From positions 36,407 to 100,406 of the forward strand of contig JAKLDR010000003.1 of NCBI GenBank assembly GCA_022703445.1: DNA of 64,000 nt. Direction: 5' to 3'. Numbering within the stretch: position 1 is the stretch's first letter; every line of letters begins with the position of its first letter. Below the pieces are notes generated by a model that saw nothing but the letters and a program-made list of their open reading frames with translations, was not told where the DNA came from and ran no database searches. Below, piece by piece: positions 45,033 through 63,638 of the stretch. The translations under genes were made by a program, and so were the position numbers. Source of the stretch: Planctomycetota bacterium. GTDB lineage: Bacteria; Planctomycetota; SZUA-567; JAKLDR01.

Positions 45033-45608
45033 TCAGGCCCGGAGACCGTTGGCCGTGGCGTAGCCGGCCAGCTGTCTCTTGAGCATCTGCCGGCCCCGGA
45101 AGATCCGGCTCATGACCGTGCCTATCGGACACCGCAGGGCACGGGCGATTTCCGCATAGCTCAGATCCTCCACTGCGGAAAGCAGCAGCGGGATGCGGAA
45201 GTCCGCCGGAATTGATGCCACCGCCCTGCTGACCTCGTCATCCAGGCCCTCCGAGAAGGAGCGGCCTCCGTCGGGGAGGGAGTCGCCCTCACCCGTACCC
45301 ATGAAGGGCTGCACGTCCTCGTAGCGGACGTTCTCAAACCTGGCGGAGCAGCGGCTGAAGCGGTCCACATTGAGGTTCGAAAGGATCTTGAGCAGCCAGG
45401 CCTTGCAGTTGGTGTCCGCCCTGAACCGGTGGAAGGCCCGGAAGGCCCGATAGTAGGCCTCCTGCACCAGATCGTCGGCATCGTGGTCGTTGCGGGTCAT
45501 GTAGCGCGCCACCCGATACACCGAGTCGAGATGCGGCAGCGCAATCCTCTCGAAATCTGTCTTGGCATCCGACTTCTCCGGGGCTTCCTTCACGATCGCT
45601 CTGATCAC
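45033..45608 (-). CDS. ECF RNA polymerase sigma factor
   Basis: DADDLVQEAYYRAF, AWLLKIL, SYAEIARALRCPIGTVMSRIFRGR; GTG 45608 with AAGGAG. Confidence 0.88.
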   Translation of the reverse strand: MIRAIVKEAPEKSDAKTDFERIALPHLDSVYRVARYMTRNDHDADDLVQEAYYRAFRAFHRFRADTNCKAWLLKILSNLNVDRFSRCSARFENVRYEDVQPFMGTGEGDSLPDGGRSFSEGLDDEVSRAVASIPADFRIPLLLSAVEDLSYAEIARALRCPIGTVMSRIFRGRQMLKRQLAGYATANGLRA

Positions 45609-45653: not shown

Positions 45654-45669
45654 AGCAACGCTCATGCCA
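45654..45669 (-). promoter_or_regulatory. sigma54 (-24/-12) promoter
   Basis: TGGCATG-AGCG-TTGCT on the minus strand. Confidence 0.75.
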
Positions 45670-45798
45670 CCTGCGTCGACCGCCAGCGCCATAGCGTTTG
45701 GCTCTGAACCGGGGCTACAGTCGACTTGCCCGGCATAGCCGATTGCGATGGTCGGGTGGGTGGACCATAGCGTTTGGCTGCGGTCACGGCATGGTCGG

Positions 45799-47979
45799 CT
45801 ATCGGCTGCAGACCGAGCGGACCTCCTCCATGGTGGTGTGGCCGGCCAGGTGCTTCTCGATCCCATCCTGCTTGAGGGTGCGCATGCCCTGGCTTGCGGC
45901 CACCTTGCGGATCTCCGCGGCGCTGGCCTGGCGGCAGACCAGCTCCTTGATCTCGTCGGTGGCCACCAGCAGTTCGTGCACCGCCATGCGCCCGCGGTAG
46001 CCCAGGTCTCCGCACTCCGGACAGCCGCCGGGACGCGCGGAGCAGACCGGCCGGGCCGGCGGAAAGCCCAGCGCGTCGAAGGCCTCGTCGGCCCGGTATT
46101 CCTGGCGAAGGGCCCCCAGCCGCCCGGCGGTCAGCGGCCCGGCCAGGCGGCAGCGCCGACAGAGGGTGCGCACCAACCGCTGAGCGAGCACCCCCAGGAG
46201 CGCATCCGAGAAGGAGTAGGGATCCAGGCCCAGATTCAGAAGCCGCACCACGGTCTCCGGCGCGCTGTTGGTGTGCAGGGTGGAGAACACCAGGTGCCCG
46301 GTGAGGCTGGACTCCACGGCGATGCCGGCGGTCTCCCGGTCGCGCATCTCCCCGATCATGATCACATCCGGGTCGGCGCGCAGGAAGGAGCGCAGCGCCG
46401 AGGCGAAGGTCACGCCCGCCTTGGGATTGACCTGCACCTGGCGCAGGCCAGGCTGGCTGATCTCCACCGGATCCTCCACCGTGAGTATCTTGACGTCGTC
46501 CCGGCTGATCTGGGCCAGGGCGCTGTGCAGCGTGGTGGTCTTGCCCGAGCCGGTCGGCCCCACGCACAGGACGATCCCGTAGGGCTGGTGGATGAGTCGC
46601 AGGAAGGCCTCGCGGTTCGCAGCGGACAGGGCCAACTCGTCGATGGGCCGGGCCTGGGCGGCCGCCAGGAGGCGCAGCACGGCGTCCTCGGCGCCCGCGA
46701 CCGTGGGATAGGTCTCCACCCGGATGTCCAGGTCCAGCTTGGCCCAACGCCGGAACTTGATCTTGCCGGACTGCGGCTTGCGCCGTTCGGCGATGTCCAG
46801 GTCGGCCATGATCTTGAGCCTGGAAATCAGGGCCTTGCCGTGCTTACGGGGCAGGCTCCCCGTCCGACGCATGATCCCGTCGACCCGGTAGCGCACCGCG
46901 CCATCGCCCTGCACGGCGGGTTCGAAATGGATGTCCGAGGCGCCGAGGGCGTGGGCTTCCTCGATCCGCTGGTTGACCAGCCGGGCGACCTCGCTGTCGT
47001 CCTCCAGGATGGAACGGTCCTCCTCCTCCTGGAGCGATGCCAGCTGCTCGGCGGACAGGCTGTCGACCAGATCGCCGGTGCCGGCGTCGTCCCGGGCGGG
47101 CTCCACCCCGGCCAGCCGGTCGAGGGCCGCAAGGATGTCCTCGGCCAGGGCCACGCGGCACTCCAGGGCCCCGCCGTCCAGCAGCGACCGGACGTGGTCG
47201 CGGGCGACAACGTCCTTGGGGTTGGCCATGGCCACCACGGTCTTCCAGCCAACGGTTGCCACCGGCACGCTCAGTGTGGACCGGAGCTGGTCGATGTGTT
47301 CCAGCACGGCCTGGCGGGGCGGTTCCGGCGGACTGGAGAAATCGTGGGCGGCGCAGCCGAAGAAGTCCTCCAGGCTGGCCAGCAGCTCAGCCTTGGGGAC
47401 CCCGTAGGCCCCGAGCAGGACCTGGTCGGCGGAGATGCCCTCCTCCTTGGCCACGCCCATGGCCATCTCCACCTGCCGCTCGGTGAGCACTCCGCGGTCG
47501 ATCAGACCCTGATGGCGGCTGCGGCGCCGGCCGAAGTCATCGATGCGATGGCTGTGGGCCTCGGTGGCGCTGCCAAGCTCGCTGAGGATCTTCGCGGCGG
47601 GCCCGGAGGGGGCGACGAAGTGCTCGAACAGCCGCGCCTCGATCATGAAGGTCTCGATCTCCTGGGCCATGGCCAGGGCCCGGAGCGCCGAGACCCCGTT
47701 GGCGTCCACGTCCTCCAGGCGGGAGCTGGTCTGCTCGACGGCCCGCAACACCAGGACGGTCAGCCGCCCGACATTGGCCGCGGTCAGCGCCTGCTCGTCG
47801 GCAATGGTCCGGAGCTGGCGGAGCAGCCTGCCGTGGCCCGCCTCTTCGGCGGCCAGCCGATCCCAGAACTCGCGCTGGCCGGAAAGCTTGGTGGCGAAGA
47901 TCTCGTAGAGCCGCTGGATCGCCTCCTCGTGGGCGGCGAGCAGCTCGATCAGCCGCAGGACTTCAGCGTTGCCTGGCAT
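45799..47979 (-). CDS. GspE/PilB-family ATPase with N-terminal ferritin/rubrerythrin-like domain
   Basis: GPTGSGKTT, TVEDPVE, RADPDVIMIGEMRD, GHLVFSTLHTN, CxxC..CxxC; N-terminal EExxH and ExxH helices. Confidence 0.88.
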   Translation of the reverse strand: MPGNAEVLRLIELLAAHEEAIQRLYEIFATKLSGQREFWDRLAAEEAGHGRLLRQLRTIADEQALTAANVGRLTVLVLRAVEQTSSRLEDVDANGVSALRALAMAQEIETFMIEARLFEHFVAPSGPAAKILSELGSATEAHSHRIDDFGRRRSRHQGLIDRGVLTERQVEMAMGVAKEEGISADQVLLGAYGVPKAELLASLEDFFGCAAHDFSSPPEPPRQAVLEHIDQLRSTLSVPVATVGWKTVVAMANPKDVVARDHVRSLLDGGALECRVALAEDILAALDRLAGVEPARDDAGTGDLVDSLSAEQLASLQEEEDRSILEDDSEVARLVNQRIEEAHALGASDIHFEPAVQGDGAVRYRVDGIMRRTGSLPRKHGKALISRLKIMADLDIAERRKPQSGKIKFRRWAKLDLDIRVETYPTVAGAEDAVLRLLAAAQARPIDELALSAANREAFLRLIHQPYGIVLCVGPTGSGKTTTLHSALAQISRDDVKILTVEDPVEISQPGLRQVQVNPKAGVTFASALRSFLRADPDVIMIGEMRDRETAGIAVESSLTGHLVFSTLHTNSAPETVVRLLNLGLDPYSFSDALLGVLAQRLVRTLCRRCRLAGPLTAGRLGALRQEYRADEAFDALGFPPARPVCSARPGGCPECGDLGYRGRMAVHELLVATDEIKELVCRQASAAEIRKVAASQGMRTLKQDGIEKHLAGHTTMEEVRSVCSR

Positions 47980-48024
47980 TCAGGTCTTCGCGTCCCCTCA
48001 CGGCCCGGCTTCGGGCGGGCGGAC

Positions 48025-49392
48025 TCAGCGCGGCACAGGCTGCGGCCGGAAGCGGCTGGCGCCCTGGACCATGCAGGTGCGCACCCAGGCCTGCTCGTTG
48101 CCGTCCGGGAAGTGGTCGATCTGGCAGTGCAGATGGTGCTCACCCTCGTACTCGACGGGCTCGACCCGCTGCGGCGTGCACCCCATGTTCAGGGACCGGT
48201 TCAGGCTGGGGCAGTCCACCTGGATGTCCATGCGCAGGGCCTCCTCCGCGATGCGCCCGGCGCTCACGCCGCCGGGCAGCGGTCCGACCAGCAGGAGCTC
48301 CGAGGCGGATATCTCGCGGGTCAGACCGAAGCTGGGCCCGTTGTCCACCGGGGCCTTGCGTTGGCTGTCCAGGAAGCGGTACTCCGCCCGGAGTTGGGCG
48401 GGGAAGCGCAGCAGATAGCGGGCCGGGCCCTCCGTCTGGTTGTAGACCAGCTTGCGCCAGGCGGCCATGGCCGACTCGGGGGCCACGCACACCCGGATCC
48501 GGCGGCCCAGTCCCGCGCGGAGTTCCTCGACCGCGGCCGGGGCGGGCGGGACGCCCATGGCCAGGGTCACGGCGCCGTCCTGCTCGCCGAGCGGGATGGA
48601 GTGGTGCTTCATGAGCAGGTGCCGGGGCAGCGCGGCGGCCAGCTTCAGGTCCGGCTTCTCGACACCCGGGTCGGCGAAAGGCAGCCGGGCCTGCTCGGCC
48701 AGGGCCCTGGCCACGGCGGCCTCGTCGACCAGGCCGCGCTGGACCAGTTCCTGCCCGATGGGGTGTATCCCGGAGAACTCATCCTTGAGAAACCGCTCGA
48801 AGCGCATCGGGTCCAGAGCCCCGTTGTGCAGCAGAATCTCGCCCAGGAAGAGCTTGTCCCGGCCGGCGTCCGGCGGCGCATCCGACCCGGTCGGGACGGA
48901 GGACGCCCGCTCCGCGGAGCTTTCCGGTTTCCCGGAATCGGAGAGGGCCTTCTCCGACCGGCCGGGCTCGTGCTGGCTGGCCCCTGTCGACAGAGGCTCC
49001 GTGCGCCAGACGCGCAGTTTGGTCATGGCCAGCGAGACCAGCACCTCCTTGAGTCGCTCGCGGATGCCGGCATCCAGCCCCAGGAAACTGACGCCCACGC
49101 CCACCCGCCCACGGCGGTCGCGCGGATCGATCCGGTGGACGATGCTCCAGACCTCGAAACCCCGACTCTCGCCTTCCACCTTCAGATGGAACCCCATTCC
49201 GTCGCCGATCTGCAGGGGGAAGCGGGCCTCCTCCGGCCAGTCGAAGAGCAGGTGCACGCCGCCATCGCTGATGTCGGCCACCAGCGCCTGGTCCGGCAGC
49301 GTCCCGCAGCGCTCGCAGGTGAACCCCGCGGCGCTGCTCAGCTTGGAGGTCAGGCGCACACCCTGGCGCCGCTCCGCCCTCGATTCGATCAT
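48025..49392 (-). CDS. PilZ - MshEN/GspE-N - PilZ-like protein
   Basis: ERRQGVR...DISDGG; LFLGEILL and IGQELVQRGLV; RFPAQL...REISAS. Confidence 0.72.
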   Translation of the reverse strand: MIESRAERRQGVRLTSKLSSAAGFTCERCGTLPDQALVADISDGGVHLLFDWPEEARFPLQIGDGMGFHLKVEGESRGFEVWSIVHRIDPRDRRGRVGVGVSFLGLDAGIRERLKEVLVSLAMTKLRVWRTEPLSTGASQHEPGRSEKALSDSGKPESSAERASSVPTGSDAPPDAGRDKLFLGEILLHNGALDPMRFERFLKDEFSGIHPIGQELVQRGLVDEAAVARALAEQARLPFADPGVEKPDLKLAAALPRHLLMKHHSIPLGEQDGAVTLAMGVPPAPAAVEELRAGLGRRIRVCVAPESAMAAWRKLVYNQTEGPARYLLRFPAQLRAEYRFLDSQRKAPVDNGPSFGLTREISASELLLVGPLPGGVSAGRIAEEALRMDIQVDCPSLNRSLNMGCTPQRVEPVEYEGEHHLHCQIDHFPDGNEQAWVRTCMVQGASRFRPQPVPR

Positions 49393-49432
49393 GGCTGGCC
49401 CTCCCGGCTGCGGACTCACGATGACGTCCTGG

Positions 49433-49448
49433 AGCAAGGCTCGTGCCA
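49433..49448 (-). promoter_or_regulatory. sigma54 (-24/-12) promoter
   Basis: TGGCACG-AGCC-TTGCT on the minus strand, full consensus. Confidence 0.85.
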
Positions 49449-49542
49449 TCGGAGCCCTGCCTGGAAACCGGGCGGAACGGCCGTTATGCCTCATCGATTG
49501 CGATGGTGGACGGCAGCGCCTCTAGTCTTTGGAATCGGTCCT

Positions 49543-49570
49543 TTGACAAGGGGAGGGAATAACTTACACT
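49543..49570 (+). promoter_or_regulatory. sigma70 promoter of the kinase/activator pair
   Basis: TTGACA (49543-49548) - 16 nt - TACACT (49565-49570) in an AT-rich patch. Confidence 0.65.
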
Positions 49571-49609
49571 GCGAAGCCGTAAAGCACCCGGAAGGCGGGA
49601 TAGCGATCT

Positions 49610-50380
49610 GTGGACCAGGCCATAGTGAACAGCGGCGACACGGCGGCGAAATTCGCTGGACCCCGGCGGCGGGAGCGCGATGTGCAGGCCCCTGGCCGGG
49701 AGCAGGCTCTGGTGCTTAGCGAGCTGGCCTCCAGCCTGGCCCACGAGATGAAGAACCCCCTGGCGGGCATGATGCTTTCGGCCGGCCGCCTGGAGCGGGC
49801 GCTGCACCAAGACGAGAAGCTCGGGCTCATCGCCGGATCCCTGTGCGCGTCCATCCGCGCCCTGTCCGATACCGTGGACCGCATAACCGGGGCGATGGGC
49901 CAGCCGGAGCCGAACCTGGAACCGATGGATCTCAACCGGGCCATAGAGGATGCGGCCGGGGTCATCGAGCGCCAGGCCGAGGCCCAGGGGATCAGGATCG
50001 TCCGGGCGCTGGCCCCGGGAATCCCCGCGGTCCGCGGTGACCCGGCGCTGCTCGGGTGTGCGCTCCGGAACATCCTGGCCAACGCCGTCGAGGCCATGCC
50101 CTCCGGGGGCGTCCTGCGCCTGGAGTCGCGGGCCACGCCGGAGGGCGGGGCCGAGGCGCTCGTCGCGGACAGCGGTCCGGGCGTGCCTCCCGAGCTGGCC
50201 GCCAATCCCTTCAAGCCGTTCCGCTCCACCAAGCCGGGCCGGGCCGGGCTGGGGCTGAGCTTGGTGCGCCGGGTGCTGGAGCTGCACGGCGGCGAGGCCG
50301 GGCTGCGCCCGGGCGCGGGCGGCGGGACCGAGGCGGTGCTCGCGTTCCCCGCGGCCGGAGAGGGCGGTCGACCGGCATGA
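49610..50380 (+). CDS. Histidine kinase (HisKA + HATPase) without an evident sensor domain
   Basis: LAHEMKNPLAGM, NILANAVEAM, DSGPGV, GLGLSLV. Confidence 0.88.
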   Translation: MDQAIVNSGDTAAKFAGPRRRERDVQAPGREQALVLSELASSLAHEMKNPLAGMMLSAGRLERALHQDEKLGLIAGSLCASIRALSDTVDRITGAMGQPEPNLEPMDLNRAIEDAAGVIERQAEAQGIRIVRALAPGIPAVRGDPALLGCALRNILANAVEAMPSGGVLRLESRATPEGGAEALVADSGPGVPPELAANPFKPFRSTKPGRAGLGLSLVRRVLELHGGEAGLRPGAGGGTEAVLAFPAAGEGGRPA

Positions 50381-51735
50381 GGACTCCGCCCAGGATCCTG
50401 GTCATCGAGGACGACACCGACGTCCGCGAGCAGTTGCTGGCCACCTTCCGCGACGAGGGCTACGAAGTCACGGCCTGCGGCACGGTCCGGGAGGGCAAGG
50501 CCCTCCTGAAGAGCACCGGCTTCGCCCTGGTGACCACCGACCTGCGCCTGCCCGACGCCAGCGGCCTGGAGGTGGTGCGGCACATCCAGGCCTCCTGCCC
50601 GGACTGTCCGGTCCTGGTGCTCACCGCCTTCGCCAGCGTCGACTCGGCGGTCGAGGCCATGCGCCACGGGGCGTTTCACTACCTGGCCAAGCCCTTCTCG
50701 GTGAACGGCCTGTTGGTCGAGGTCGAGCGGGCCCTGGAGCACGCGCGGCTGCTCCGCGAGCGGAGCCAGCTCCGGGAGCGGCTCTCGGCCGAGAGCGGCC
50801 TGGGCCGCATCCTGGGCGGCAGTCCGGCCATCGAGTCGGTGCGCGGGCTGATCCGCGAGGTGGCCAGGACCTCCACCACCGTGCTGATCACCGGCGAGAC
50901 CGGGACCGGCAAGGAACTGGTGGCCAACGCCCTGCACTACGAGAGCCCCCGGGCCACCGGTCCGCTGGTCAAGCTGAACTGCGCTGCGCTCACCGAGACC
51001 CTGCTGGAGTCGGAGCTCTTCGGTCACGAGAAGGGCGCCTTTACCGGGGCCGAGCGCTCCCGTGCGGGCCGGTTCGAGCGGGCCGACGGCGGGACCCTGT
51101 TCCTGGACGAGATATCGGAGATGGGCCCCCACGTCCAGGCCAAGCTGCTGCGGGTGCTCCAGGGCGAGGCTTTCGAGCGGGTGGGCGGCGACCAGCCGCT
51201 GCGGCCGGACGTCCGGTTGGTGGCCGCCACCAACCGTGATCCGCAGCAGGCGGTCGCGGAGGGCAAGCTGCGCCAGGACCTGTTCTTCCGGCTGAACATC
51301 GTCTGCGTCGAAGTCCCCCCGCTCCGGAAGCGGCCCGAGGACATCCCGCTGCTGGCCAGGCACTTTCTGGGGATCTTCGCGGACCGGTTCGGCAGAGGCC
51401 AGGCCTCCCTGGACGACGAGGCGCTCAACGCCCTGTGCGCCTACCCGTGGCCCGGGAACGTCCGGGAGCTGGAGAACTGCATCGAACGGGCGGTGATCGT
51501 GGCGCAGGACGGCACCGTGCGCCGGCGGAACCTCCCCGCGCCCATCAGCGGGATCGAAGCAGAGCCGCCCGGCGCGCCCCTGAACCTCGAAGCCCTGGAG
51601 AAGCGGGCCATCCTGCAGGCCCTGCGCGAAACGGGCGGCAACAAGTCCCAGGCCGCCGCCAAGTTGGGGATCTTCCCCTCTTCCCTTTATAAGAAGATGA
51701 AACGCTTTGACATACCTCTGCAGCCTGAACCGTAG
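50377..51735 (+). CDS. sigma54-dependent response regulator (NtrC/AtoC type)
   Basis: REC domain; GETGTGKE; GAFTGA; FLDEI; WPGNVRELEN; Fis-type HTH. Confidence 0.95.
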   Translation: MRTPPRILVIEDDTDVREQLLATFRDEGYEVTACGTVREGKALLKSTGFALVTTDLRLPDASGLEVVRHIQASCPDCPVLVLTAFASVDSAVEAMRHGAFHYLAKPFSVNGLLVEVERALEHARLLRERSQLRERLSAESGLGRILGGSPAIESVRGLIREVARTSTTVLITGETGTGKELVANALHYESPRATGPLVKLNCAALTETLLESELFGHEKGAFTGAERSRAGRFERADGGTLFLDEISEMGPHVQAKLLRVLQGEAFERVGGDQPLRPDVRLVAATNRDPQQAVAEGKLRQDLFFRLNIVCVEVPPLRKRPEDIPLLARHFLGIFADRFGRGQASLDDEALNALCAYPWPGNVRELENCIERAVIVAQDGTVRRRNLPAPISGIEAEPPGAPLNLEALEKRAILQALRETGGNKSQAAAKLGIFPSSLYKKMKRFDIPLQPEP

Positions 51736-51823
51736 CCTTCGGCCATGGCCGCGTCTGCCGGACACAGCTGAAGTGTACGCTCGTAGCCTCTGCGCAGCAC
51801 ACCCCCACCGCAGCCTGATTCCG

Positions 51824-51839
51824 TGGCATGGAGCTTGCG
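51824..51839 (+). promoter_or_regulatory. sigma54 (-24/-12) promoter
   Basis: TGGCATG-GAGC-TTGCG. Confidence 0.75.
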
Positions 51840-51883
51840 AATCCGCGCTGCGTGGGCGAACTGACAGCTAAGGAGGGCCGATA

Positions 51884-52264
51884 GTGGCGAAGATCCTGGT
51901 GCTCGACGATGAGAGTCAGTGGCTGGAGCTGGTTCGGGACAAGCTCCTCGCCATGGGCCACGAGGTGCGGACCACGGCCGACTGCCTGGACGCCCTCAGA
52001 CAGATCGAGGCCGACCTTCCCGACCTGGCAATCATAGACCTACGCATGCCGGTCAGCGGGAGCACCATGCTCCGAGCGATGCGCGAGGACTGGCCGGAGC
52101 TACCGGTGGTGATGCACACCGTCTACAGCGGCTATCGCGACGCCCCCAGTCTCAATGGCATCGCCGGCTTCGCAGTCAAGAACCCGGAGCTGACCGAGCT
52201 GATCAAGGTGGTGGAGAACGTGCTGGCGCAGAAGCAGCGCTGCGCCGAGACGTCTTCGACTTGA
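51884..52264 (+). CDS. Single-domain response regulator
   Basis: KILVLDDE, DLAIIDLRMP; AAGGAGG before GTG. Confidence 0.88.
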   Translation: MAKILVLDDESQWLELVRDKLLAMGHEVRTTADCLDALRQIEADLPDLAIIDLRMPVSGSTMLRAMREDWPELPVVMHTVYSGYRDAPSLNGIAGFAVKNPELTELIKVVENVLAQKQRCAETSST

Positions 52265-52358
52265 TGCCCTGGAGGTTGGACGCGACTGCCTGGCCATCGC
52301 GATGCGCGCACCAGTGGCCATGCGGCCCATTGGGGAGCTCGCACGAAGGGAGGATCCG

Positions 52359-52550
52359 ATGAAGGTCCTGGTCGACGCCAACCTCTGCGAGGGATGCGGC
52401 CCGTGCGAAGAGGTCTGCCCGGAGGTGTTCCGGATAGTCGACAACCTCGCCCGGGTCATAGCCGATCCGGTGCCCCCCGAGTCCGAAGGGGCCTGCCGTC
52501 AGGCGGTCGAGAGCTGTCCGACCAACGCCATATCCGTTGTGGAAGAGTAG
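52359..52550 (+). CDS. Ferredoxin (single cluster type)
   Basis: CEGCGPCEEVCPEVF...CPTNAI; GGGAGG RBS. Confidence 0.9.
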   Translation: MKVLVDANLCEGCGPCEEVCPEVFRIVDNLARVIADPVPPESEGACRQAVESCPTNAISVVEE

Positions 52551-52585
52551 GATCACATCGAGCCGAAGAGGCGTCGGGACCAAAC

Positions 52586-53152
52586 ATGCAGGTAATTGGC
52601 CCGTTGATGATCGAGCACCGCCTGATCGGGCGCATGCTCGCGCTCGTGCGCCTCGAACTGGAGGGTGTCCGGCGCGGCCGACCGCTGAACCCCGGCTTCG
52701 TCCAGGCGGCGGTCGACTTCATCCGCGTCTATGCGGACCGGGTCCATCACGGCAAGGAGGAGGACCTTCTGTTCCGCGAACTGGCCCGGAAGAGCCTGAC
52801 GCCGCCTGACCGGGCGGCGATGGATGAGCTGGTCAGGGAGCACGCCTGGGCGCGCAAGCGCGCCGGAGAACTGGCCGGCGCCTCCGAGCGGCTGGCCGGG
52901 GGTGGTTCGGGGGCTGCCGACGATATCGCCAAGGCTCTCCTGGACCTGGTCGAGTTCTACCCGAAGCACATCGAACGCGAGGACCGAAGGTTCTTCCCCG
53001 CTGCCACGGCGTACCTCTCCGAGCAGGAGCAGCAGGCCATGCTCCGGGAGTTTGCGGATTTCGACCGCGGTCTGATCCACGAGATATACAGGGGGCTGGT
53101 CGCCAGCCTCGAGATGGCCCGATTGCCGGGGCAAGAGCCGGAATCAGATTAG
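52586..53152 (+). CDS. Hemerythrin/HHE cation-binding domain protein
   Basis: EHRLI, HHGKEEDLLF, EHAWAR, HIEREDRRFFP. Confidence 0.88.
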   Translation: MQVIGPLMIEHRLIGRMLALVRLELEGVRRGRPLNPGFVQAAVDFIRVYADRVHHGKEEDLLFRELARKSLTPPDRAAMDELVREHAWARKRAGELAGASERLAGGGSGAADDIAKALLDLVEFYPKHIEREDRRFFPAATAYLSEQEQQAMLREFADFDRGLIHEIYRGLVASLEMARLPGQEPESD

Positions 53153-53357
53153 CCAGGAATTACCTGCGTCCGAGTCCCGTTGACCTTGCGCATCCTGAAG
53201 AAGGAAAGCTCCGGCCGCGACGGGCCGGGAACGAGTTGGAGGAAGGGGGCCAGGCAACCCGCGGGCAAGGCGACGCCCCGATGCCAACGCACGTGGCTCC
53301 GCCCGGTGGCGGCGCCTGACGGATACGACCTGAGGCACTCTGACGGGAGAGACTGAG

Positions 53358-53582
53358 ATGGAAAGCGCCACGAACAAGACCGAAACCCAGGAGCTCCGCG
53401 AGAAGCTGGACGTGCTCAAGCAGGACTTCGTCGATGTCGCCAGGACGGCGAAGGCCCGCGCGGTCGACGGCACCACCCAATGGGTCAGGGAGCACCCCCT
53501 GGCAGGCATGGGCATCGCAGCGGGCCTCGGCGCAGGCGTCGGGCTGGCGATCGGCCTGTTGGTCGGACGCAACCGCAGTTAG
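53358..53582 (+). CDS. DUF883 / ElaB-YqjD-like tail-anchored small protein
   Basis: LREKLDVLKQD...WVREHPLAGMGIAAGLGAGVGLAIGLLVGR. Confidence 0.75.
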   Translation: MESATNKTETQELREKLDVLKQDFVDVARTAKARAVDGTTQWVREHPLAGMGIAAGLGAGVGLAIGLLVGRNRS

Positions 53583-53627
53583 CACAGGCATAGCGGCCGC
53601 GGGATCATTCCGCACGGGACGTCCGAA

Positions 53628-55460
53628 ATGTGCGGGATAATCGGCTGCGTGGGCCGCACGCCCGCCGCGGCCATCGTGCTCGACGGTCTGCAGGCCCTCG
53701 AATACCGCGGCTACGATTCGGCGGGCCTGGCCGTCCTGGATGGCGACAAGCTCCTGGTCGAGCGGGTCTCCGGCCGGATCGCCGACCTCCGGGCCCGGCT
53801 AGCGGGCCGCCGGCTCCCGGGCACGACGGCCATCGGCCACACGCGCTGGGCCACCCACGGCATGCCCAGCGAGGCCAACGCCCACCCTCATGCGGACTGC
53901 GCCGGCCGGGTGGCGGTCGTGCACAACGGGATCATCGAGAATCATCGCGCGCTCCGCCGGGCGCTGGAAGCCGATGGCCACAAGTTCAGCTCGGAGACCG
54001 ACTCGGAGGTGCTCGCCCACCTGGTGGAGCGGAGCCTGGCCGGCGGGGCCGACCTGCCCTCGGCGCTCCGGCGGGCCATGCGCGAAATCGAGGGCTCGGC
54101 GGCGGTGGCCTGCATCTCGGCCGACTCGCCGGGCGTGATCGTCGCGGCGCGCCGGGGGAGCCCGCTGGCCATCGGCGTGTCCGAGGGCCGGCAGTTCGTG
54201 GCCTCCGACGCCCTGCCCATCGTCGAGCACACCCGCCGGGTCATCTACCTGGAGGACGACGAGCTGGCGGTTCTCGCCTCCGACCGGGTCGAGCTGTTTG
54301 ACCGCGACGGGCTGCCCGTGCCGCGATCGCCCACCGTCATCGTCTGGAACGCGGTGGCCATCCAGAAGGAAGGCTACGCACACTTCATGCTCAAGGAGAT
54401 CCACGAGCAGCCCCGGGCCATCGAAGACACGCTCCGCGGGCGGGTCGCCCCGGGCCTCATTGGCGTCGAGTTCGGCGAGGAACTGCCGGCCGGGCTCCTC
54501 GCCGGCATGCAGCGCATGGTCATCGTCGGGATGGGCACGTCCTGGCACGCCGGCCTCATCGGCCGGAACATGATCGAGCGCCTGGCCCGCCTGCCCGTTC
54601 AGGTGGACTACGCTGCCGATTTCCGGTACCGGGATCCGGTGATCGACGAGCACACCCTGGTGCTGGCCATCTCCCAGTCCGGGGAGACGGCCGACACCCT
54701 GGAAGCCGTGCGCCTGGCCAAGTCCCTGGGAGTCCGCACGGCGGTCATCGCCAACGTGGTGGACTCGTCACTGGCCCGCGAAGCGGATGGCGTCCTCTAC
54801 ACCCGTGCCGGGCCCGAGGTGGGGGTGGCCTCCACCAAGGCCTTCACCAGCCAGATCACCGCGCTCTGCATGCTGGCCATCCGCCTCGGGCTGGAGCGCG
54901 GGGCGCTGGCCAAGGCGGAGGCCGTCCGGCGCATCAACGACCTCTGCGCCACCGGCGGGGAACTCCGCAAGGTGCTGGATACGGGCGCGGCGGTCGAGCG
55001 GCTCGCCGGGAAATACGCCCAGGCGCGGGACTTCCTGTTCCTGGGGCGCGGCGCGGGGTACCCGCTGGCCCTTGAAGGGGCGCTGAAGCTCAAGGAGGTG
55101 GCCTACATTCACGCCGAGGGCTACCACGCCGCCGAGATGAAGCACGGTCCCATCGCGCTGGTCGACGCCAACATGCCGGTGCTCTTCCTGGCCCTGAAGG
55201 GCCGGCGCTACGAGAAGATCATGAGCAACATCCAGGAGATCCGGGCCCGCGGCGGCAGGGTCATTGCCGTGGCCTCGCTCGGCGACGAGGAGATCGTCAA
55301 CCAGGCCGACGACGTGCTCTACGTGCCCGACGAGGTGGGCATGATGAACGCGGTCCTGGCAACCGTGCCGCTGCAGCTGCTCGCCTACCACGTGGCGGTG
55401 GCCCGCGGCTGCGACGTGGACCGGCCGCGGAACCTGGCCAAGAGCGTTACCGTGGAGTGA
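53628..55460 (+). CDS. glmS: Glutamine-fructose-6-phosphate transaminase (isomerizing)
   Basis: MCGI start; LEYRGYDSAG; GHTRWATHG; SQSGETADT; VASTKAFT; EMKHGPIAL; PRNLAKSVTVE. Confidence 0.97.
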   Translation: MCGIIGCVGRTPAAAIVLDGLQALEYRGYDSAGLAVLDGDKLLVERVSGRIADLRARLAGRRLPGTTAIGHTRWATHGMPSEANAHPHADCAGRVAVVHNGIIENHRALRRALEADGHKFSSETDSEVLAHLVERSLAGGADLPSALRRAMREIEGSAAVACISADSPGVIVAARRGSPLAIGVSEGRQFVASDALPIVEHTRRVIYLEDDELAVLASDRVELFDRDGLPVPRSPTVIVWNAVAIQKEGYAHFMLKEIHEQPRAIEDTLRGRVAPGLIGVEFGEELPAGLLAGMQRMVIVGMGTSWHAGLIGRNMIERLARLPVQVDYAADFRYRDPVIDEHTLVLAISQSGETADTLEAVRLAKSLGVRTAVIANVVDSSLAREADGVLYTRAGPEVGVASTKAFTSQITALCMLAIRLGLERGALAKAEAVRRINDLCATGGELRKVLDTGAAVERLAGKYAQARDFLFLGRGAGYPLALEGALKLKEVAYIHAEGYHAAEMKHGPIALVDANMPVLFLALKGRRYEKIMSNIQEIRARGGRVIAVASLGDEEIVNQADDVLYVPDEVGMMNAVLATVPLQLLAYHVAVARGCDVDRPRNLAKSVTVE

Positions 55461-55514
55461 GGCCGAGGACGAAGGCAGCCTGCCGGGCCGTGTTGCGCAT
55501 GATGCTCCAGGGCC

Positions 55515-56567
55515 TCAGCGCCTCACCCCGTCCAGGACCTCGCGCACGCGGCCGATCAGCGCCTCCGCCGTGAAGGGCTTCTGGAGGTAATTCGTACCCG
55601 GCGGAAGCGCCCCGCTCCGGACGGCCGCGTGTTCGGGGTAGCCGGACATGAAGAGCACCTTGATGCCCGGGCGCGCGGCGCCGAGCCGCTCCGCCACCTC
55701 CGGCCCGCCCACCCGGGGCATGATCATGTCGGTGACCAGCAGGTCGATGGCCCCGCAGTGCCCGCTGGCCGCATGCAGAGCCTGATCGCCGTCGCAGGCT
55801 TCCAGGATGACATAGCCCTGACCGGCGAGGGCCTCGAGAACCTCCGCCCGGATCGAGGGCTCGTCCTCCGCCAACAGGATGGTCTCCGTGCCACGCAAAA
55901 GCACGACCGGCTCGTCCGGAGACTGGGGCGATCCGACGCGACCATCGGCGCGGGGCAGGTAGATTCTGAGGATCGTGCCGTGGCCGGGCTCGCTGTAGAG
56001 CCAGATGTGCCCGCCGTTCCGGCTGACGATGCCATGGACAATGCACAGGCCCAGGCTGGCGCCCTCGCCCGGCGTCTTGGCGGGGAAGAAGGGCTCGAAG
56101 AGCCGGCTACGGGTCGTGGCATCCATGCCCGCCCCGGTGTCGCTGATCGTCAGCATGACGTATTGCCCGGGCGCGACCCGCTCGTGCCAGAACGCGCTCT
56201 TCTCGTCAACTTCGGCATTGCCGGTTTCGATAGTGAGCTCGCCGCCCTCGGGCATGGCATCACGGGCGTTGGCGGACAGGTTCAGAAGCACCTGCTCCAT
56301 CTGGGCGGTATCGGCCCTGGCAGCCCAGAGATCGGCAGCCAGGCACATCCGGAGATCGACGCCATCGCCGATCTCTCGCCTGATCATCGTCTCCATGCCC
56401 TTGAGTATGGAGTTGAGGTCCAGCGGGCCTGGCCGGACCGCCTGCCTGCCATCCGGGACCGGATGCCGCCGGGCGGGCGCGGCGGCGTGGTCGCAACGGC
56501 CCCTATGAGAGCTCGCGTCACCAGCGCGCAACCGTTCGTCGGTCAGACTGCTTTCGGCAACGCTCAT
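55515..56567 (-). CDS. HATPase + REC protein lacking the HisKA/H-box (truncated hybrid kinase)
   Basis: GGAGG before ATG 56567; NLSANARDAM, DTGAGMD, FEPFF, REC DLLVTD; no AHDFNN-like box. Confidence 0.7.
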   Translation of the reverse strand: MSVAESSLTDERLRAGDASSHRGRCDHAAAPARRHPVPDGRQAVRPGPLDLNSILKGMETMIRREIGDGVDLRMCLAADLWAARADTAQMEQVLLNLSANARDAMPEGGELTIETGNAEVDEKSAFWHERVAPGQYVMLTISDTGAGMDATTRSRLFEPFFPAKTPGEGASLGLCIVHGIVSRNGGHIWLYSEPGHGTILRIYLPRADGRVGSPQSPDEPVVLLRGTETILLAEDEPSIRAEVLEALAGQGYVILEACDGDQALHAASGHCGAIDLLVTDMIMPRVGGPEVAERLGAARPGIKVLFMSGYPEHAAVRSGALPPGTNYLQKPFTAEALIGRVREVLDGVRR

Positions 56568-56885
56568 GGTCGCGCCTCCGCTCGCCCGATGCCGCCCCTG
56601 GCGCGACGCGTTCGACAGCCCGCGCCCCAAGGCACCGGGATCGGGATCATCAGGCAGCTACTTAATGGCCTGGGGTCCGGATTTATTCCGGCGGCCCGGA
56701 AGTGCCCTATCTCTGGACGCCCCGGGGATCGCTCCATACGGGTCGCTTGCCCTTTGCAGCCACCCAGGCATGTCCTTTGGCTAGATCTGGCCGGACAGGT
56801 CATAGCCTGAGTGTCTGCAGGTCCTCAGTGCGGGCCGGACGGGCGCCGAGGTCCGGCCAGGGGAGGACGAGGCAGGCATCATCCC

Positions 56886-56901
56886 TGGCCCGCCAGTTGC
56901 T
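56886..56901 (+). promoter_or_regulatory. sigma54 (-24/-12) promoter
   Basis: TGGCCCG-CCAG-TTGCT, ending 12 bp before ATG 56914. Confidence 0.65.
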
Positions 56902-56913
56902 GGACCGCCAGCC

Positions 56914-57480
56914 ATGCCCCGACTCGCGAACCTGCCGCTGAACCCCGAGACCATCGTCTACCCCGGCGGAGACCTGGGGAAGGCCAGGGCCAGCGCCTAT
57001 CTCAACGTCCTGATGCGGATGCTGGCCCTGCCCGGCATGAGTCGGCTCGGACTGGTGACCAGGCTGCTGCGCCACGGGCTGGGAGTGCCGGCCTCGACCT
57101 CCATCAACCCCGGGTTCCACTGTCACGCGGGGAATATCCATTGTGGCGAGGGCGTGGACCTCTCCGACACCCTTTTCATCGACTATGCGCCGGTCTACAT
57201 CGGCGATGGCACCTGGTTCTCCTATCGCAACATGGTGATCACCGCCGCTCGGGACTACGAGAAGGTCACCGCCCGGCCGGTGGTGCTGGAGAGGAACGTC
57301 TGGGTCACCAGCAACGTGACCATCCTGCCCGGGGTGCGCATCGGCGAGAACAGCGTGATCGGCGCCGGCAGCGTGGTCGTCCGGGACATACCCCCCAACG
57401 TCCTGGCGGCCGGCAATCCCTGCCGGCCGATCCGGGCCGTTCAGCGCACCCGCCCCAAGCGGTCCCGGCCGGGCAGCTAG
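56914..57480 (+). CDS. Hexapeptide-repeat (LbH) O-acetyltransferase
   Basis: PVVLERNVWVTSNVTILPGVRIGENSVIGAGSVVVRDIPPNVLAAGNPCRPI. Confidence 0.9.
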   Translation: MPRLANLPLNPETIVYPGGDLGKARASAYLNVLMRMLALPGMSRLGLVTRLLRHGLGVPASTSINPGFHCHAGNIHCGEGVDLSDTLFIDYAPVYIGDGTWFSYRNMVITAARDYEKVTARPVVLERNVWVTSNVTILPGVRIGENSVIGAGSVVVRDIPPNVLAAGNPCRPIRAVQRTRPKRSRPGS

Positions 57481-57496
57481 CAGCGGAACCTGGCGT

Positions 57497-59017
57497 GTGG
57501 ACCTCAAGGCCCTCGGACGGAACACCCTGATCTACGCCGTCGGCAACATCGGGCTGCGCGCCGTGGCCTTCCTGCTCATCCCGCTCTACGCCCACCTGCT
57601 TTCCCAACCCGACTTCGGGATGCTCTACACCATCTTCTTCACCATGCAGATCATGCTGGTGCTCATGAACCTGGGCGTCCGCGAGAGCCTGGTCCGCTTC
57701 GCCAGCGAGGCCGGGCGCGCCGGCCGGATGGGCACACTGCTGGGCAGCTGCCTGCTGGTCAACCTGGCCGGCGGGGCGCTGGTGACCGGCGCAGCCATGG
57801 CCTTCCTGCTCCCCTTCCTCGGCGGGCTGCTCCACGTCGAAAACCCCGGGCGCTATGTGCTGCTGGCTTCGGCCATCACCCTGGCCCAGGTGCTCACCAA
57901 CCAGATGCTCAACTACTTCCGGGCCATCAACTCGGCCCTGCGGTTCATGGCCGCCGGGCTCTGCGTGGCCGTCGCGCTGGTCATCGCCAACGTCCTGCTG
58001 CTCGGGGTCTTCCACATGGGCATCATCGGGGCGCTGGTCGCCCAGCTGATCGTCTACGGACTGGCCTTCGCGGTGCTGGCGGCGCTGATCCTCCCCCGAC
58101 TGGGCCTGGGCGCCTCCCGGCAGGTGCTCCGCCAGGTGCTGGCCTTCGGCTCCCCCCTGGTGCTCTCCGAGTTCGCCTGGTCGGTGATGATCGCCGTGCC
58201 CGCCTACTTCCTGAGTTACCACGTGGGTCTGGCCGAAGTGGCCACCTACTCGCTGGGCGTGCGCCTGGCCCAGGTGGTGACCATCGTGCTGATCCTCCCG
58301 TTCCAGCTGGCCTACGCCCCCTACGTCTTCGCGCACCTGGACAACGCCGCCATCCGCCAGTCCATGAGCCGGGTGCTGACCTACCTGGTGCTGGCCTTCG
58401 GCGCGGTGGCCTTCGCGGTGCTGACCGGCTCGCGCTTCCTGGTGCCCCTGATCGTGCCGGCGGGCTATTCCGGGGCGGTGCTGGTGCTGCTGATGATGCT
58501 GCCGGCCGTCGGCTTCGAGGCGCTCTATGCCTTCTCGTCGACGCTGCTGCTCATCAGGCGCCGAAGCCGCGTCGCCGGGGGGCTCGCCGTGCTGGCCGGA
58601 GGAATCAGCCTGGGGCTGAATCTGGCATTGGTTCCGGCTTTCGGCCTGTACGGGGCCATCCTGGTTGTGAACCTGGCCACCGGCTTCATGGCCCTGGCGG
58701 TGCTCATTGCCGGGCTGCGCACCTACCCCTTGCGGCTGGAGGTGAAGCGCATGACCGTGGGCCTGGCCGCCTTCGCCGGGCTGGGCCTGCTCTTCCTGGC
58801 CGCGCGCGAGGCTTCCCCCCCGGCTTTCATCGCGGCAGTGGTCCTGCCGGGCCTGGCCGTTCCGGTGCTGCTCTACGTCAGCGGTTTCTTCGACCCGTCC
58901 GAGAAACGCGGCATCCGCGACGTTCTCGGGAGGAAGATCTCCTTCTGGAGACGCCCGGCCGCCCGGCCGGCGTTGCCTTCGCGGCTGGCGCAGGTTCTGC
59001 CTTCGGACCGGGTTTGA
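57497..59017 (+). CDS. Oligosaccharide flippase (Wzx family)
   Basis: LGRNTLIYAVGN...LLIPLYAHLLS..DFG; many TM helices; ATYSLGVRLA. Confidence 0.88.
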   Translation: MDLKALGRNTLIYAVGNIGLRAVAFLLIPLYAHLLSQPDFGMLYTIFFTMQIMLVLMNLGVRESLVRFASEAGRAGRMGTLLGSCLLVNLAGGALVTGAAMAFLLPFLGGLLHVENPGRYVLLASAITLAQVLTNQMLNYFRAINSALRFMAAGLCVAVALVIANVLLLGVFHMGIIGALVAQLIVYGLAFAVLAALILPRLGLGASRQVLRQVLAFGSPLVLSEFAWSVMIAVPAYFLSYHVGLAEVATYSLGVRLAQVVTIVLILPFQLAYAPYVFAHLDNAAIRQSMSRVLTYLVLAFGAVAFAVLTGSRFLVPLIVPAGYSGAVLVLLMMLPAVGFEALYAFSSTLLLIRRRSRVAGGLAVLAGGISLGLNLALVPAFGLYGAILVVNLATGFMALAVLIAGLRTYPLRLEVKRMTVGLAAFAGLGLLFLAAREASPPAFIAAVVLPGLAVPVLLYVSGFFDPSEKRGIRDVLGRKISFWRRPAARPALPSRLAQVLPSDRV

Positions 59018-59160
59018 TGTCCGATCATTTCGTTTGACCAGCTCGCGAGCATCGGAAGTGTATGCCCACTCGGGCTGCGGCGGCCGATTGGGAATGCCGC
59101 GGACCTGCATCCCGAACAATTGCCAGCTCATCCATGAACACCCCGGAGCCGCGACCGCCA

Positions 59161-59176
59161 TGGCATGGACCTTGCT
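59161..59176 (+). promoter_or_regulatory. sigma54 (-24/-12) promoter
   Basis: TGGCATG-GACC-TTGCT upstream of ATG 59211. Confidence 0.78.
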
Positions 59177-60026: not shown

Positions 60027-60077
60027 TGGCCCGTCGGCGCGGTGCCGGGGCGGTCAGAAGTCCGGTTGGAGGCGACC

Positions 60078-62411: not shown

Positions 62412-62438
62412 CCGGCCGGGCAGGAAGGAGACCAGCGC

Positions 62439-63638
62439 ATGTCATTCTGGAGAAGTATCCACGGCCTCCTGCCCACCGCCCCACGGCGCGAGGAGGAGGG
62501 CCTCGCCTCCGGGGCCGCGATGCACCGGTTGCTGGAGCAGGAACGCGCCCGCGCCGAGCGGACCGGGTTGGAGTTCTCACTGCTGACCTTCCATGTTCCG
62601 GCCGGCGAGGAGGGCCGGCGGCTCGTGCCGCGACTGGCCGCCGAGCTGTCCAGTCGCGTGCGGGCCACCGACACGGTCGGCTGGCTGGACCAGGGCCGGG
62701 TCGGCGTGCTCCTGCCGGCGACCATCCCGCCGGGCGCCCACAGGTTGGGCGACGAGACCGTCAAGCGCATGGCGGCGCTGGGCTGGCCGGTGGAGTACCA
62801 TGTCTGCGTCTTCTCCGCGCACTGCCGGCCCTGGAACCCCGCCCGGGGCTCCGGAGACGGCAATGGCGACAGCGGACACCTTCGGGACGGCGATGCGGCC
62901 GAGGCCCTCCGCGGCCAGCCGACTTCGGACGCCGGCCACCTCCGCCCGGAGGACGACGAGCCCATGGAGCCGCTGTTCGCGGTGCGCACACCCCTATGGA
63001 AGCGGACCATGGACGTGGTCGGCGCTGCGGCCGGGCTGATCGCGCTCGCGCCGCTGATGCTGCTGGTGGCGCTGGCCGTGAAGCTGACTTCGCCGGGACC
63101 GGTGCTCTTCCGGCAGGAGCGGGTGACCGTGGCCGGCCGGATCTTCACCTTCCTGAAATTCCGGAGCATGCGCTCGGACAACGACGCCTCCGGACACCGC
63201 AACTACGTGGCCGGACTGATCCACTCCGACCGGCCCATGAGGAAGCTCGAGGACGACCCGCGCATCCTGTCCCTGGGCCGGTTCCTGCGCAGAACCTGCC
63301 TGGACGAACTGCCCCAGCTCATCAACGTGCTCCGCGGGGAGATGAGCCTGGTCGGCCCGCGGCCCTGCCTGCCCTACGAGGCGGCGGAGTACGCCCGCTG
63401 GCATGCGCGGCGTTTCGACCTGCTGCCAGGCATGACCGGGCTCTGGCAGGTAAGCGGCAAGAACGAGTGCACCTTCCGGGAGATGGTCCGGCTGGACATC
63501 GCCTATGCCCGGAGACTGTCCCTGTGGCTGGATCTAAAGATCCTGTTCAGAACCCCCCTGGCGGTGCTGGGCAGCGCCGGAGGCGCTCGCTCCCAGGCCA
63601 ACGCGATGAAGGGAATGGTCCATGAGCAATCGGCTTAA
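62439..63638 (+). CDS. Priming phosphoglycosyltransferase (sugar transferase) with N-terminal degenerate GGDEF domain
   Basis: KRTMDV, SPGPVLFRQER, FLKFRSM, DDPRI, LDELPQLINVLRGEMSLVGPRP; N-terminal EQERARAER...RATDTVGW...GVLLP. Confidence 0.88.
   Translation: MSFWRSIHGLLPTAPRREEEGLASGAAMHRLLEQERARAERTGLEFSLLTFHVPAGEEGRRLVPRLAAELSSRVRATDTVGWLDQGRVGVLLPATIPPGAHRLGDETVKRMAALGWPVEYHVCVFSAHCRPWNPARGSGDGNGDSGHLRDGDAAEALRGQPTSDAGHLRPEDDEPMEPLFAVRTPLWKRTMDVVGAAAGLIALAPLMLLVALAVKLTSPGPVLFRQERVTVAGRIFTFLKFRSMRSDNDASGHRNYVAGLIHSDRPMRKLEDDPRILSLGRFLRRTCLDELPQLINVLRGEMSLVGPRPCLPYEAAEYARWHARRFDLLPGMTGLWQVSGKNECTFREMVRLDIAYARRLSLWLDLKILFRTPLAVLGSAGGARSQANAMKGMVHEQSA

Follow-up and report, generated by a model that had tools for sequence, protein, structure and literature searches.

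The locus examined here raises the question of whether five candidate sigma-54 promoters, gathered within 13.5 kb around one NtrC-family activator gene, answer to that activator and make up a single regulon. The DNA analysed, referred to as the window, is a stretch of 64 kb (G000:C223:36407-100406) from the metagenome-assembled genome of a Planctomycetota bacterium (G000, the source genome; 5.99 Mb, 314 contigs, about 70% GC), and the promoters, P1 to P5, lie between its positions 45654 and 59176. A sequence-only reading of this stretch had proposed that one switch co-controls all the units behind them as a local regulon serving a surface/biofilm programme. Our analysis points to a related but modified answer. 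The local activator, acting through a 15-bp palindrome, would drive the sigma-54 promoters P1, P3 and P4 and probably P2 and P5 too, an explanation to which we give a probability of about 0.68. Within it, the predicted shared control of an extracytoplasmic function (ECF) sigma factor, of a unit encoding a receiver (REC) protein, hemerythrin and probably GlmS, and of the first exopolysaccharide (EPS) operon has good support as the work of the local activator.

Exactly five matches to TGGCNNG-N4-TTGC occur in the window, all of them where the sequence-only reading had placed its promoters, while dinucleotide-preserving shuffles contain 0.82 on average and none of 100 reaches five. The strict pattern TGGCA[CT]G-N4-TTGC is found 19 times in the whole 5.99-Mb genome, with four occurrences in the 13.5-kb stretch and two more on its contig. 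A sigma-54 matrix handmade from the literature consensus (maximum score 18.9) gave 35 hits of at least 15.5 genome-wide, four of which fall in the stretch and make it the densest cluster in the genome (P=0.004 for random placement). The five boxes listed below are the sole intergenic boxes scoring at least 12.5 in the region.

45654-45669, minus strand: P1 box TGGCATGAGCGTTGCT; score 18.9; 46 nt to GTG 45608; Shine-Dalgarno-like purine run present
49433-49448, minus strand: P2 box TGGCACGAGCCTTGCT; score 18.7; 41 nt to ATG 49392; Shine-Dalgarno-like purine run present
51824-51839, plus strand: P3 box TGGCATGGAGCTTGCG; score 15.8; 45 nt to GTG 51884; Shine-Dalgarno-like purine run present
56886-56901, plus strand: P4 box TGGCCCGCCAGTTGCT, with a variant -24 element; score 14.2; 13 nt to ATG 56914; no Shine-Dalgarno-like purine run
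59161-59176, plus strand: P5 box TGGCATGGACCTTGCT; score 18.9; 35 nt to ATG 59211; Shine-Dalgarno-like purine run present

As had been claimed, each of the five boxes lies between genes and is oriented towards its own gene, with the start codon 13-46 nt away, and all point away from the central kinase-activator pair, P1 and P2 leftward and P3 to P5 rightward. In every one of them the GG and GC dinucleotides are exactly 10 nt apart within TGGCAC-N5-TTGCW. P4 is the outlier, a TGGCCC variant in which C replaces the consensus A (TGGCCCG). Its predicted start site is at about 56912, some 2 nt before the ATG and with no Shine-Dalgarno sequence, so that a near-leaderless sigma-54 transcript is predicted. 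On these grounds the five boxes are predicted to be genuine sigma-54 (-24/-12) promoters.

The machinery that such promoters need is encoded in the genome. The rpoN gene is present as a single copy whose product of 535 aa is complete, with AID, CBD and DBD domains. The activator (50377-51735) is a REC-AAA+-HTH_8 protein and carries the expected GAFTGA motif in its translation (ELFGHEKGAFTGA; GHEKGAFTGA), together with the Walker A sequence GETGTGKE and, in its receiver domain, Asp55 and the acidic pocket D12/D13. About 29 bona fide Sigma54_activat proteins, with strong E-values and above the cut-off, are encoded in the source genome. Proximity alone therefore cannot assign five promoters to one activator, and a shared enhancer was sought.

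The shared upstream element that the sequence-only reading had suggested looking for is a 15-bp palindrome, ATAGCC-N3-GGCTAT, with the consensus (CC)ATAGCC-N3-GGCTAT(GG). P1 has three sites of it and P3 and P4 carry it as well, in each case 30-150 nt upstream of the box. The promoters of the window were scored with an independent 19-bp position weight matrix (PWM) trained on sites outside the window only; random low-GC windows of 310 nt reach scores of 14, 12, 10 and 8 in 0.4%, 0.8%, 3% and 6% of cases. The sites at these three promoters are listed without strand.

45691-45705: P1 site; PWM 16.1; centre 29 nt from the box
45735-45749: P1 middle site; PWM 14.8; centre 73 nt from the box
45767-45781: P1 site; PWM 17.8; centre 105 nt from the box, 32 bp from the middle site
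51732-51746: P3 site A GTAGCCTTCGGCCAT; PWM 18.7; 85 nt from the box, overlapping the activator stop codon
51764-51778: P3 weak site B ACAGCTGAAGTGTAC; 32 bp from site A
56770-56784: P4 site A ATGTCCTTTGGCTAG; PWM 13.7; 109 nt from the box
56802-56816: P4 weak second site ATAGCCTGAGTGTCT; PWM 4.5; 77 nt from the box, 32 bp from site A

The 14-mer GCCAAACGCTATGG of the P1 enhancer is found nowhere else in the genome. P3 sites A and B are both conserved in an alignment of three family-level relatives (G001 to G003, G001 being of the same genus). For P4 the comparison with G001 is informative. The EPS genes are syntenic there (57-68% identity; 57-62% for acetyltransferase and flippase) and lie on another contig than the activator. 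The acetyltransferase gene of G001 is preceded by TGGCCCGGCCCTTGCT, which shows the same TGGCCCG variant, and the counterpart of P4 site A, GCATGTCCGACGGCTATGC (score 15.4), is located 100 nt upstream of this box. Conservation of both box and site thus confirms P4, including its unusual -24 variant. The P4-equivalent box of G001 lies 171 nt upstream of the conserved start codon.

Evidence from outside the window links the palindrome to the activator. Orthologues of the activator in G001, G002 and G003 are 66-70% identical, and the conserved core around them consists of a divergent ECF sigma gene and the genes for kinase, activator and REC. In G001 and G002 the ECF gene has a sigma-54 box in front of it, as does the REC gene in G003; boxes before the REC gene were read by eye in G001 (cGGCACAGGCGTTGCG) and G002 (TGGCAAGCTACTTGCT). 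When the regions upstream of REC from the three relatives are aligned, one conserved block, GTAGCC-N3-GGCTATGG, stands out amid diverged DNA, followed by a weaker block about 32 bp later, and the same dyad is also present in the ECF-upstream regions of the relatives. The same-genus orthologue of the activator (G001:C144:8140-9489, L095; L-numbers denote individual loci) is flagged with one in-frame TGA.

A protein search retrieved about 60 orthologues 58-71% identical to the activator, several of them from NCBI-named Planctomycetota, and the next tier of homologues reaches at most 51%. Eight orthologue-bearing metagenome contigs (154 kb) were scanned with a PWM built from G000-G003 sites only. 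Thirteen palindrome hits were obtained, ten of which lie 30-260 nt upstream of a sigma-54 box (null mean 0.46; none of 5000 randomisations reaches ten). The palindrome is central between divergent sigma-54 boxes in L096, L098, L099 and L100, and tandem sites 31-32 bp apart occur in L096, L100 and L105 as well as at P1 and P4 of the window. As a control served 80 loci around other NtrC-family activators (paralogues at most 48% identical; 1.28 Mb of lower GC), where one of 21 palindrome hits was box-associated. The association is exclusive to the activator orthologues. Their recognition helix, LGIFPSSLYKKMKRF, is conserved, and the recognition-helix segment common to the group, LG(I/V)(F/Y)PSSLYKK(M/L)(K/R)R, is absent from every other activator of the source genome and from the next-tier homologues. 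The 12 loci have no other DNA-binding gene in common. Because the box association is specific to orthologue loci and the helix is distinctively conserved, the palindrome is most likely the binding site of the activator, as its co-occurrence with the orthologues suggests.

The possibility that the palindrome is a terminator hairpin was ruled out, since it lies between divergent genes, where no gene ends upstream of it, and lacks a T-run. AGTGTA was rejected as a second element shared by the upstream regions of P2, P3 and P5: the P2 copy is the -10 match TACACT of the divergent kinase promoter read on the opposite strand, and the eight orthologue loci show no enrichment of AGTGTA upstream of their sigma-54 boxes. 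The longer GAAGTGTAYGC is common to P3 site B (51770-51780) and the P5 upstream region (59055-59065), in each case 32 bp after the first site. Its GTGTAC half is kept in G001 and G003, not in the more distant loci.

The claim that one switch co-controls all of the units is well supported for P1, P3 and P4; P2 scores marginally (9.6) and P5 as low as 0.9. Upstream of these two promoters the following elements were found, again listed without strand.

49495-49506: P2 12-mer CCATCGCAATCG; only two copies in the genome, the other being the middle P1 site
49522-49536: P2 weak, degenerate site CTAGTCTTTGGAATC; PWM 9.6, marginal; aligns with the 15.7-scoring site of a second locus on contig C223 (C223b)
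59017-59031: P5 degenerate remnant ATGTCCGATCATTTC; PWM about 0-1, weak evidence
59049-59063: P5 degenerate remnant GCATCGGAAGTGTAT; PWM about 0-1, weak evidence; 32 bp from ATGTCCGATCATTTC

The first P5 remnant has kept the left half and spacer, ATGTCCGAT, which align with the G001 site CCGTATCCGATAGATAGGT (14.6), and a GTGTAT half-site follows 32 bp on. In G001, wza is preceded by TGGCCCGCGCATTGCT and by two sites that score 14.6 and 12.2 and lie 31 bp apart, which shows the wza promoter of the sister species to be part of the regulon.

For P2, the second locus on the contig is instructive. It extends from 124.3 to 129 kb (124328-128994; L118:14329-18995), outside the window and 36 kb to its right. 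The left arm encodes a paralogue of the PilZ protein behind P2 (67-78% identical) and, after it, NAD synthase and an AMP-binding enzyme of the AMP-ligase type; the right arm encodes a paralogue (72% identical) of REC126, the REC-only protein behind P3, followed by a DUF2582 protein and a GGDEF cyclase. The two boxes, TGGCACGGACGTTGCT at 125549 (minus strand) and TGGCATGGTGCTTGCG at 125782 (plus strand), are nearly identical to those of P2 and P3, and a single palindrome scoring 15.7 lies between these divergent boxes at about 125699. The DNA upstream of P2 is homologous to this region (common AATCGATGAGGCAYARCGGCC). The second locus resembles a copy of the P2/P3 arms that lacks the kinase-activator pair, and the window correspondingly looks like a divergent unit with that pair between its arms. 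No other motif shared by P2 and P5 was found among 12-mers with up to two mismatches. Both promoters are probably members of the regulon by way of sites that are weak or have eroded. For P5, weak service by its own remnants, use of the P4 sites, read-through from P4 and control by another activator are all conceivable.

A further operon for a PilZ-MshEN protein and a PilB-like ATPase (53-58% identical) is present in the source genome (G000:C271, about 50,950) and in G001 (G001:C126, L114, about 5,150). The C271 operon is preceded by a perfect, enhancer-like palindrome, ATATCC-TGT-GGATAT (ATATCG-GGT-GGATAT in G001), with no sigma-54 box, and the operon in G001 has a different activator, 40% identical, divergently adjacent to it.

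Several observations weigh against one activator serving all five promoters through the palindrome. The best P2 site has a score that is reached by about 3-6% of random windows, P5 lacks any scoring site within 300 nt, and another of the roughly 29 encoded activators could serve both. The P4 box taken by itself is within noise, as 120 genomic hits score at least 13.5, many of them inside genes, and its predicted start some 2 nt before an ATG that has no Shine-Dalgarno sequence is unfavourable as well. The PWMs were built from about 20 sites, some of them picked by eye, and palindrome and activator are linked by co-occurrence only, so that some other co-inherited factor is conceivable. What is observed at P2 and P5 would fit a mixed regulon, in which the local activator drives P1, P3 and P4 only while P2 and/or P5 use others of the remaining 28 or so activators, their proximity to the switch reflecting functional clustering or chance. 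Such an arrangement would also agree with the different activator adjoining the closest PilZ-ATPase operon of G001 and with the finding that EPS and PilZ/ATPase genes are not neighbours of activator orthologues outside the genus. Yet it has to account for the two good palindrome sites at the wza promoter of G001, for the homology of the P2 upstream region to a paralogous promoter with a 15.7-scoring site and for the 12-mer that P2 has in common with a P1 site. Moreover, the search for an alternative P2-P5 motif came back empty, and P5 could be reached by read-through from P4. We regard a mixed regulon as unlikely, though as a contender to be taken seriously.

A more radical objection is that the boxes match the consensus by chance, being located in intergenic DNA of low GC content, and are no promoters at all. 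P4 does fall in the range in which the matrix yields its 120 genome-wide hits. But the outcome of the shuffles, the intergenic position, orientation and start-codon distance of all five boxes, and their retention before orthologous genes (50-70% protein identity) despite divergence of the surrounding DNA make a chance origin extremely improbable. A different co-inherited DNA-binding protein, such as a repressor, a nucleoid protein or another regulator, might instead bind the palindrome, with the enhancer of the activator located elsewhere. In its favour, the similar ATATCC-N3-GGATAT precedes the PilZ-ATPase operons of C271 and G001:C126 in the absence of a sigma-54 box, several high-scoring genomic palindrome hits lie away from boxes, and binding by the activator is deduced from sequence. 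This substitution is nevertheless quite improbable given that the distance of about 30-150 nt, the dyad symmetry, the 31-32-bp tandems and the central position in divergent pairs are the classic layout of enhancer-binding-protein sites, that the association is specific to an orthologue group with a distinctively conserved helix-turn-helix (HTH), and that no other DNA-binding gene is kept across the 12 loci. The preferred explanation thus remains that the activator and the palindrome together control P1, P3 and P4, and probably P2 and P5.

How such a switch might operate is best considered with the gene map at hand. Genes were called by GC3-based open reading frame calling and assigned by Pfam.

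40267-44937, minus strand: giant hybrid sensor kinase, DUF4118-PAS-PocR-GAF-PAS-GAF-HisKA-HATPase-REC, directly downstream of the ECF gene
45033-45608, minus strand: ECF sigma factor of 191 aa, predicted target of P1 (Sigma70_r2 and Sigma70_r4_2)
45799-47979, minus strand: PilB/GspE-like ATPase with MshEN, 726 aa, gene 2 of the P2 operon (T2SSE, 2.9e-116, and MshEN)
48025-49392, minus strand: PilZ and MshEN protein, 455 aa, gene 1 of the P2 operon
49543-49570, plus strand: sigma-70-like promoter match TTGACA-16-TACACT before the kinase gene, a 10/12 consensus match only
49610-50380, plus strand: small histidine kinase, HisKA and HATPase_c, 256 aa, no recognisable sensor domain
50377-51735, plus strand: NtrC-family sigma-54 activator, REC-AAA+-HTH_8 with GAFTGA and D55 (Pfam and translation)
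51884-52264, plus strand: REC-only protein (REC126), first gene of the P3 unit
52394-53152, plus strand: hemerythrin, P3 unit
53334-53582, plus strand: DUF883 protein, P3 unit
53628-55460, plus strand: GlmS, P3 unit
55515-56630, minus strand: HATPase_c and REC protein, divergent from P4
56914-57480, plus strand: hexapeptide acetyltransferase, first gene behind P4
57497-59017, plus strand: Wzx-type flippase, second gene behind P4
59211-60026, plus strand: Wza, first gene behind P5 (Poly_export/SLBB; also NCBIfam)
60042-62411, plus strand: Wzc-like co-polymerase/tyrosine kinase (Wzz/GNVR; also NCBIfam)
62412-63638, plus strand: polyprenyl-phosphate sugar transferase, priming (Bac_transf; also NCBIfam)

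In the mechanism that we propose, the regulator is paired with the small kinase encoded just upstream, and a sigma-70-type promoter probably drives the two genes. The assumption of a sigma-70-driven centre made in the sequence-only reading agrees with the TTGACA-16-TACACT match, which is one of consensus only; no sigma-54 box scoring at least 9 was found for the kinase operon or for the HATPase-REC gene 55515-56630. Through its Fis-type HTH, the regulator would bind the 15-bp palindrome at sites that are often in tandem 31-32 bp apart, i.e. three helical turns, and about 30-150 nt upstream of the box. Once phosphorylated, it would oligomerise at these sites and remodel the sigma-54 closed complex. 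Activation of P1 would supply the ECF sigma factor as a second regulatory tier, activation of P3 would yield REC, hemerythrin, the DUF883 protein and probably GlmS, and activation of P4 would yield the EPS acetyltransferase and flippase, with transcription probably reading on into wza-wzc. No terminator-like site was detected on the plus strand between the genes of the P3 unit (51884-55460), whose extent as an operon is predicted. The signal is possibly redox, oxygen or iron, perceived via hemerythrin and the flanking hybrid kinases. As to the small kinase, its input may come from the hybrid kinases (40267-44937 and 55515-56630) or from REC126/hemerythrin, and the giant hybrid kinase may likewise feed input to the switch. 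In orthologous loci the kinase position is mostly occupied by a GAF-containing kinase of about 430-460 aa, or by short kinases.

Some of the products escape finer naming. The ECF sigma factor stays under every NCBIfam equivalog cut-off, its best match being a SigH_actino-like model, below the cut-off of that model, and the ATPase is under the PilB/GspE equivalog cut-offs, so that a PilB-like role is putative. The first 215 aa of the ATPase (47335-47979) gave no ferritin/rubrerythrin-like match in Pfam searches at E<=1, nor did the first 200 aa of the priming transferase (62412-63011) give a GGDEF-like one.

Several known systems offer a comparison. In general architecture, the REC-AAA+(GAFTGA)-HTH_8 protein, the adjacent kinase and the dyad tandem sites about 100 nt from a -24/-12 promoter resemble NtrB/NtrC-type systems (glnAp2; AtoSC, ZraSR). 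DNA motif and cargo differ from those of NtrC, AtoC and ZraR, and assignment to a named equivalog failed, as the activator stays under all NCBIfam equivalog cut-offs, including those for AtoC (459/714), NtrC (424/559), ZraR (404/760) and LuxO (358/800). The activator is an unnamed member of the NtrC family. In Vibrio fischeri, the locus-encoded NtrC-type regulator SypG activates four sigma-54 syp polysaccharide operons; an enhancer sequence is repeated in front of each of them, and SypG receives input from several hybrid kinases (PMC10162802, citing Ray et al. 2013, PMC3837961). The syp system resembles the present locus in its locus-encoded NtrC-type regulator and its sigma-54 EPS operons and, as far as P1, P3 and P4 are concerned, in its repeated enhancer. 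The syp enhancer is 22 bp long, whereas the element of the present locus is a palindrome of 15 bp. It is evident at P1, P3 and P4 but of marginal score at P2 (9.6), and P5 scores 0.9; in G001, the orthologues of P4 and P5 both carry it. Unlike syp, the regulon predicted here adds an ECF sigma factor, hemerythrin and cyclic di-GMP (c-di-GMP) effector genes, reaches other contigs, and includes EPS as a genus-level addition.

A two-tier sigma cascade is known from HrpR/HrpS-HrpL of Pseudomonas syringae, where an ECF sigma gene with no anti-sigma gene next to it is transcribed from a sigma-54 promoter that depends on enhancer-binding proteins (PMC5263251). The ECF gene of the window, which likewise has no adjacent anti-sigma factor and a predicted sigma-54 promoter, would form a comparable cascade. 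However, neither HrpR nor HrpS has a receiver domain, and the two work together as a hetero-oligomer, in contrast to the single REC-containing activator with a cognate kinase, and HrpL drives type III secretion, which is not part of the system here. PrsK/PrsR is a sigma-54 two-component system tied to PEP-CTERM/XrtA EPS loci in environmental bacteria (Haft et al. 2006, PMC1569441). It likewise places a sigma-54 activator and kinase by an EPS locus, and the Wzc-like protein of the window partially matches XrtA-system models. Membership was rejected on the scores of the activator (379 versus 503, TIGR02915) and the kinase (43 versus 300, TIGR02916), and no PEP-CTERM/XrtA gene was seen in the region.

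A literature search returned nothing describing sigma-54 regulons in Planctomycetota, whose regulation has hardly been studied experimentally. The mechanism considered here is a textbook one, in which an NtrC-type two-component system works with sigma-54 through upstream sites. What the analysis contributes is annotation and testable prediction and not a new principle. It provides a falsifiable regulon model for an uncultured lineage, with a named activator, a predicted 15-bp site and about ten predicted target promoters, and with a conserved core that spans at least 12 genomes or metagenome contigs.

The regulon is not as local as it had been taken to be. Pairs of a sigma-54 box (at least 12.5) and a palindrome (at least 11) occur 12 times in the genome against 1.2 expected. 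They comprise P1 (three sites), P3, P4, the divergent promoters C223:125549 (minus strand) and 125782 (plus strand) of the second locus, and single promoters on C34, C45, C57, C71 and C90. Since some five of these candidate promoters are on other contigs and the second divergent pair is 36 kb from the window, the regulon is not confined to the locus. Its apparent growth is illustrated by the P2/P3 promoter pair, which seems to have been duplicated elsewhere on the contig, and by the EPS promoters, which carry the enhancer regardless of linkage to the activator.

The genes behind such promoters suggest what the ancestral function may have been. Across the 12 loci an ECF sigma gene lies directly behind a box-plus-palindrome promoter in six, and a sigma-54 box is found upstream of the ECF gene in the window, G001, G002, L098, L099 and L100. 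A single REC protein is also encoded behind such promoters, often at the head of a REC-kinase-activator operon, which would mean positive autoregulation. REC together with hemerythrin follows a sigma-54 box in L099, L101 and L102. Other genes in this position encode hemerythrin, ferritin, a DJ-1 protein, Usp, and a small protein followed by the ribosome hibernation factor S30AE; neighbours in the loci encode rubrerythrin, rubredoxin, desulfoferrodoxin, GroESL, and CBS and BON proteins. What the 11 orthologous loci have kept as targets is thus ECF sigma, a single REC, hemerythrin and general stress/redox genes. The EPS genes and the PilZ/ATPase operon are not among them and are not neighbours in orthologous loci outside this genus. 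Judged by this gene content, the conserved core looks like a stress/redox response with a sigma-54 to ECF cascade, and EPS, glmS and the c-di-GMP components (PilZ, MshEN, GGDEF) appear to be a lineage-specific extension at the genus level and not the ancestral role. The proposed surface/biofilm programme is therefore a fair description of the genus-specific extension, but not of the ancestral core of ECF sigma, REC, hemerythrin and stress/redox functions.

A broader scenario may tentatively be drawn from this, although we would rate it below even odds. A widely distributed, uncharacterised Planctomycetota family of enhancer-binding proteins with a defined palindromic enhancer would constitute a redox/stress switch of ancestral origin (ECF sigma, single-domain REC, hemerythrin, rubrerythrin/ferritin, Usp, hibernation factor), and one genus would have captured the EPS locus, glmS and c-di-GMP effector/synthase genes (PilZ-MshEN, PilB-like ATPase, GGDEF) by duplication of promoter plus enhancer. 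If true, oxygen/iron sensing would be coupled to a c-di-GMP-gated surface programme via a sigma-54 to ECF cascade.

The best palindrome of the whole genome lies far from the window. At G000:C34:8150-8260 (L119), CCATAGCCAACGGCTACGG scores 23.9 and is located 50 nt upstream of the box cGGCATGGGATTTGCA. This box reads into a gene for a signal-peptide-like protein of about 180 aa that matches no Pfam family and is a likely distal member of the regulon.

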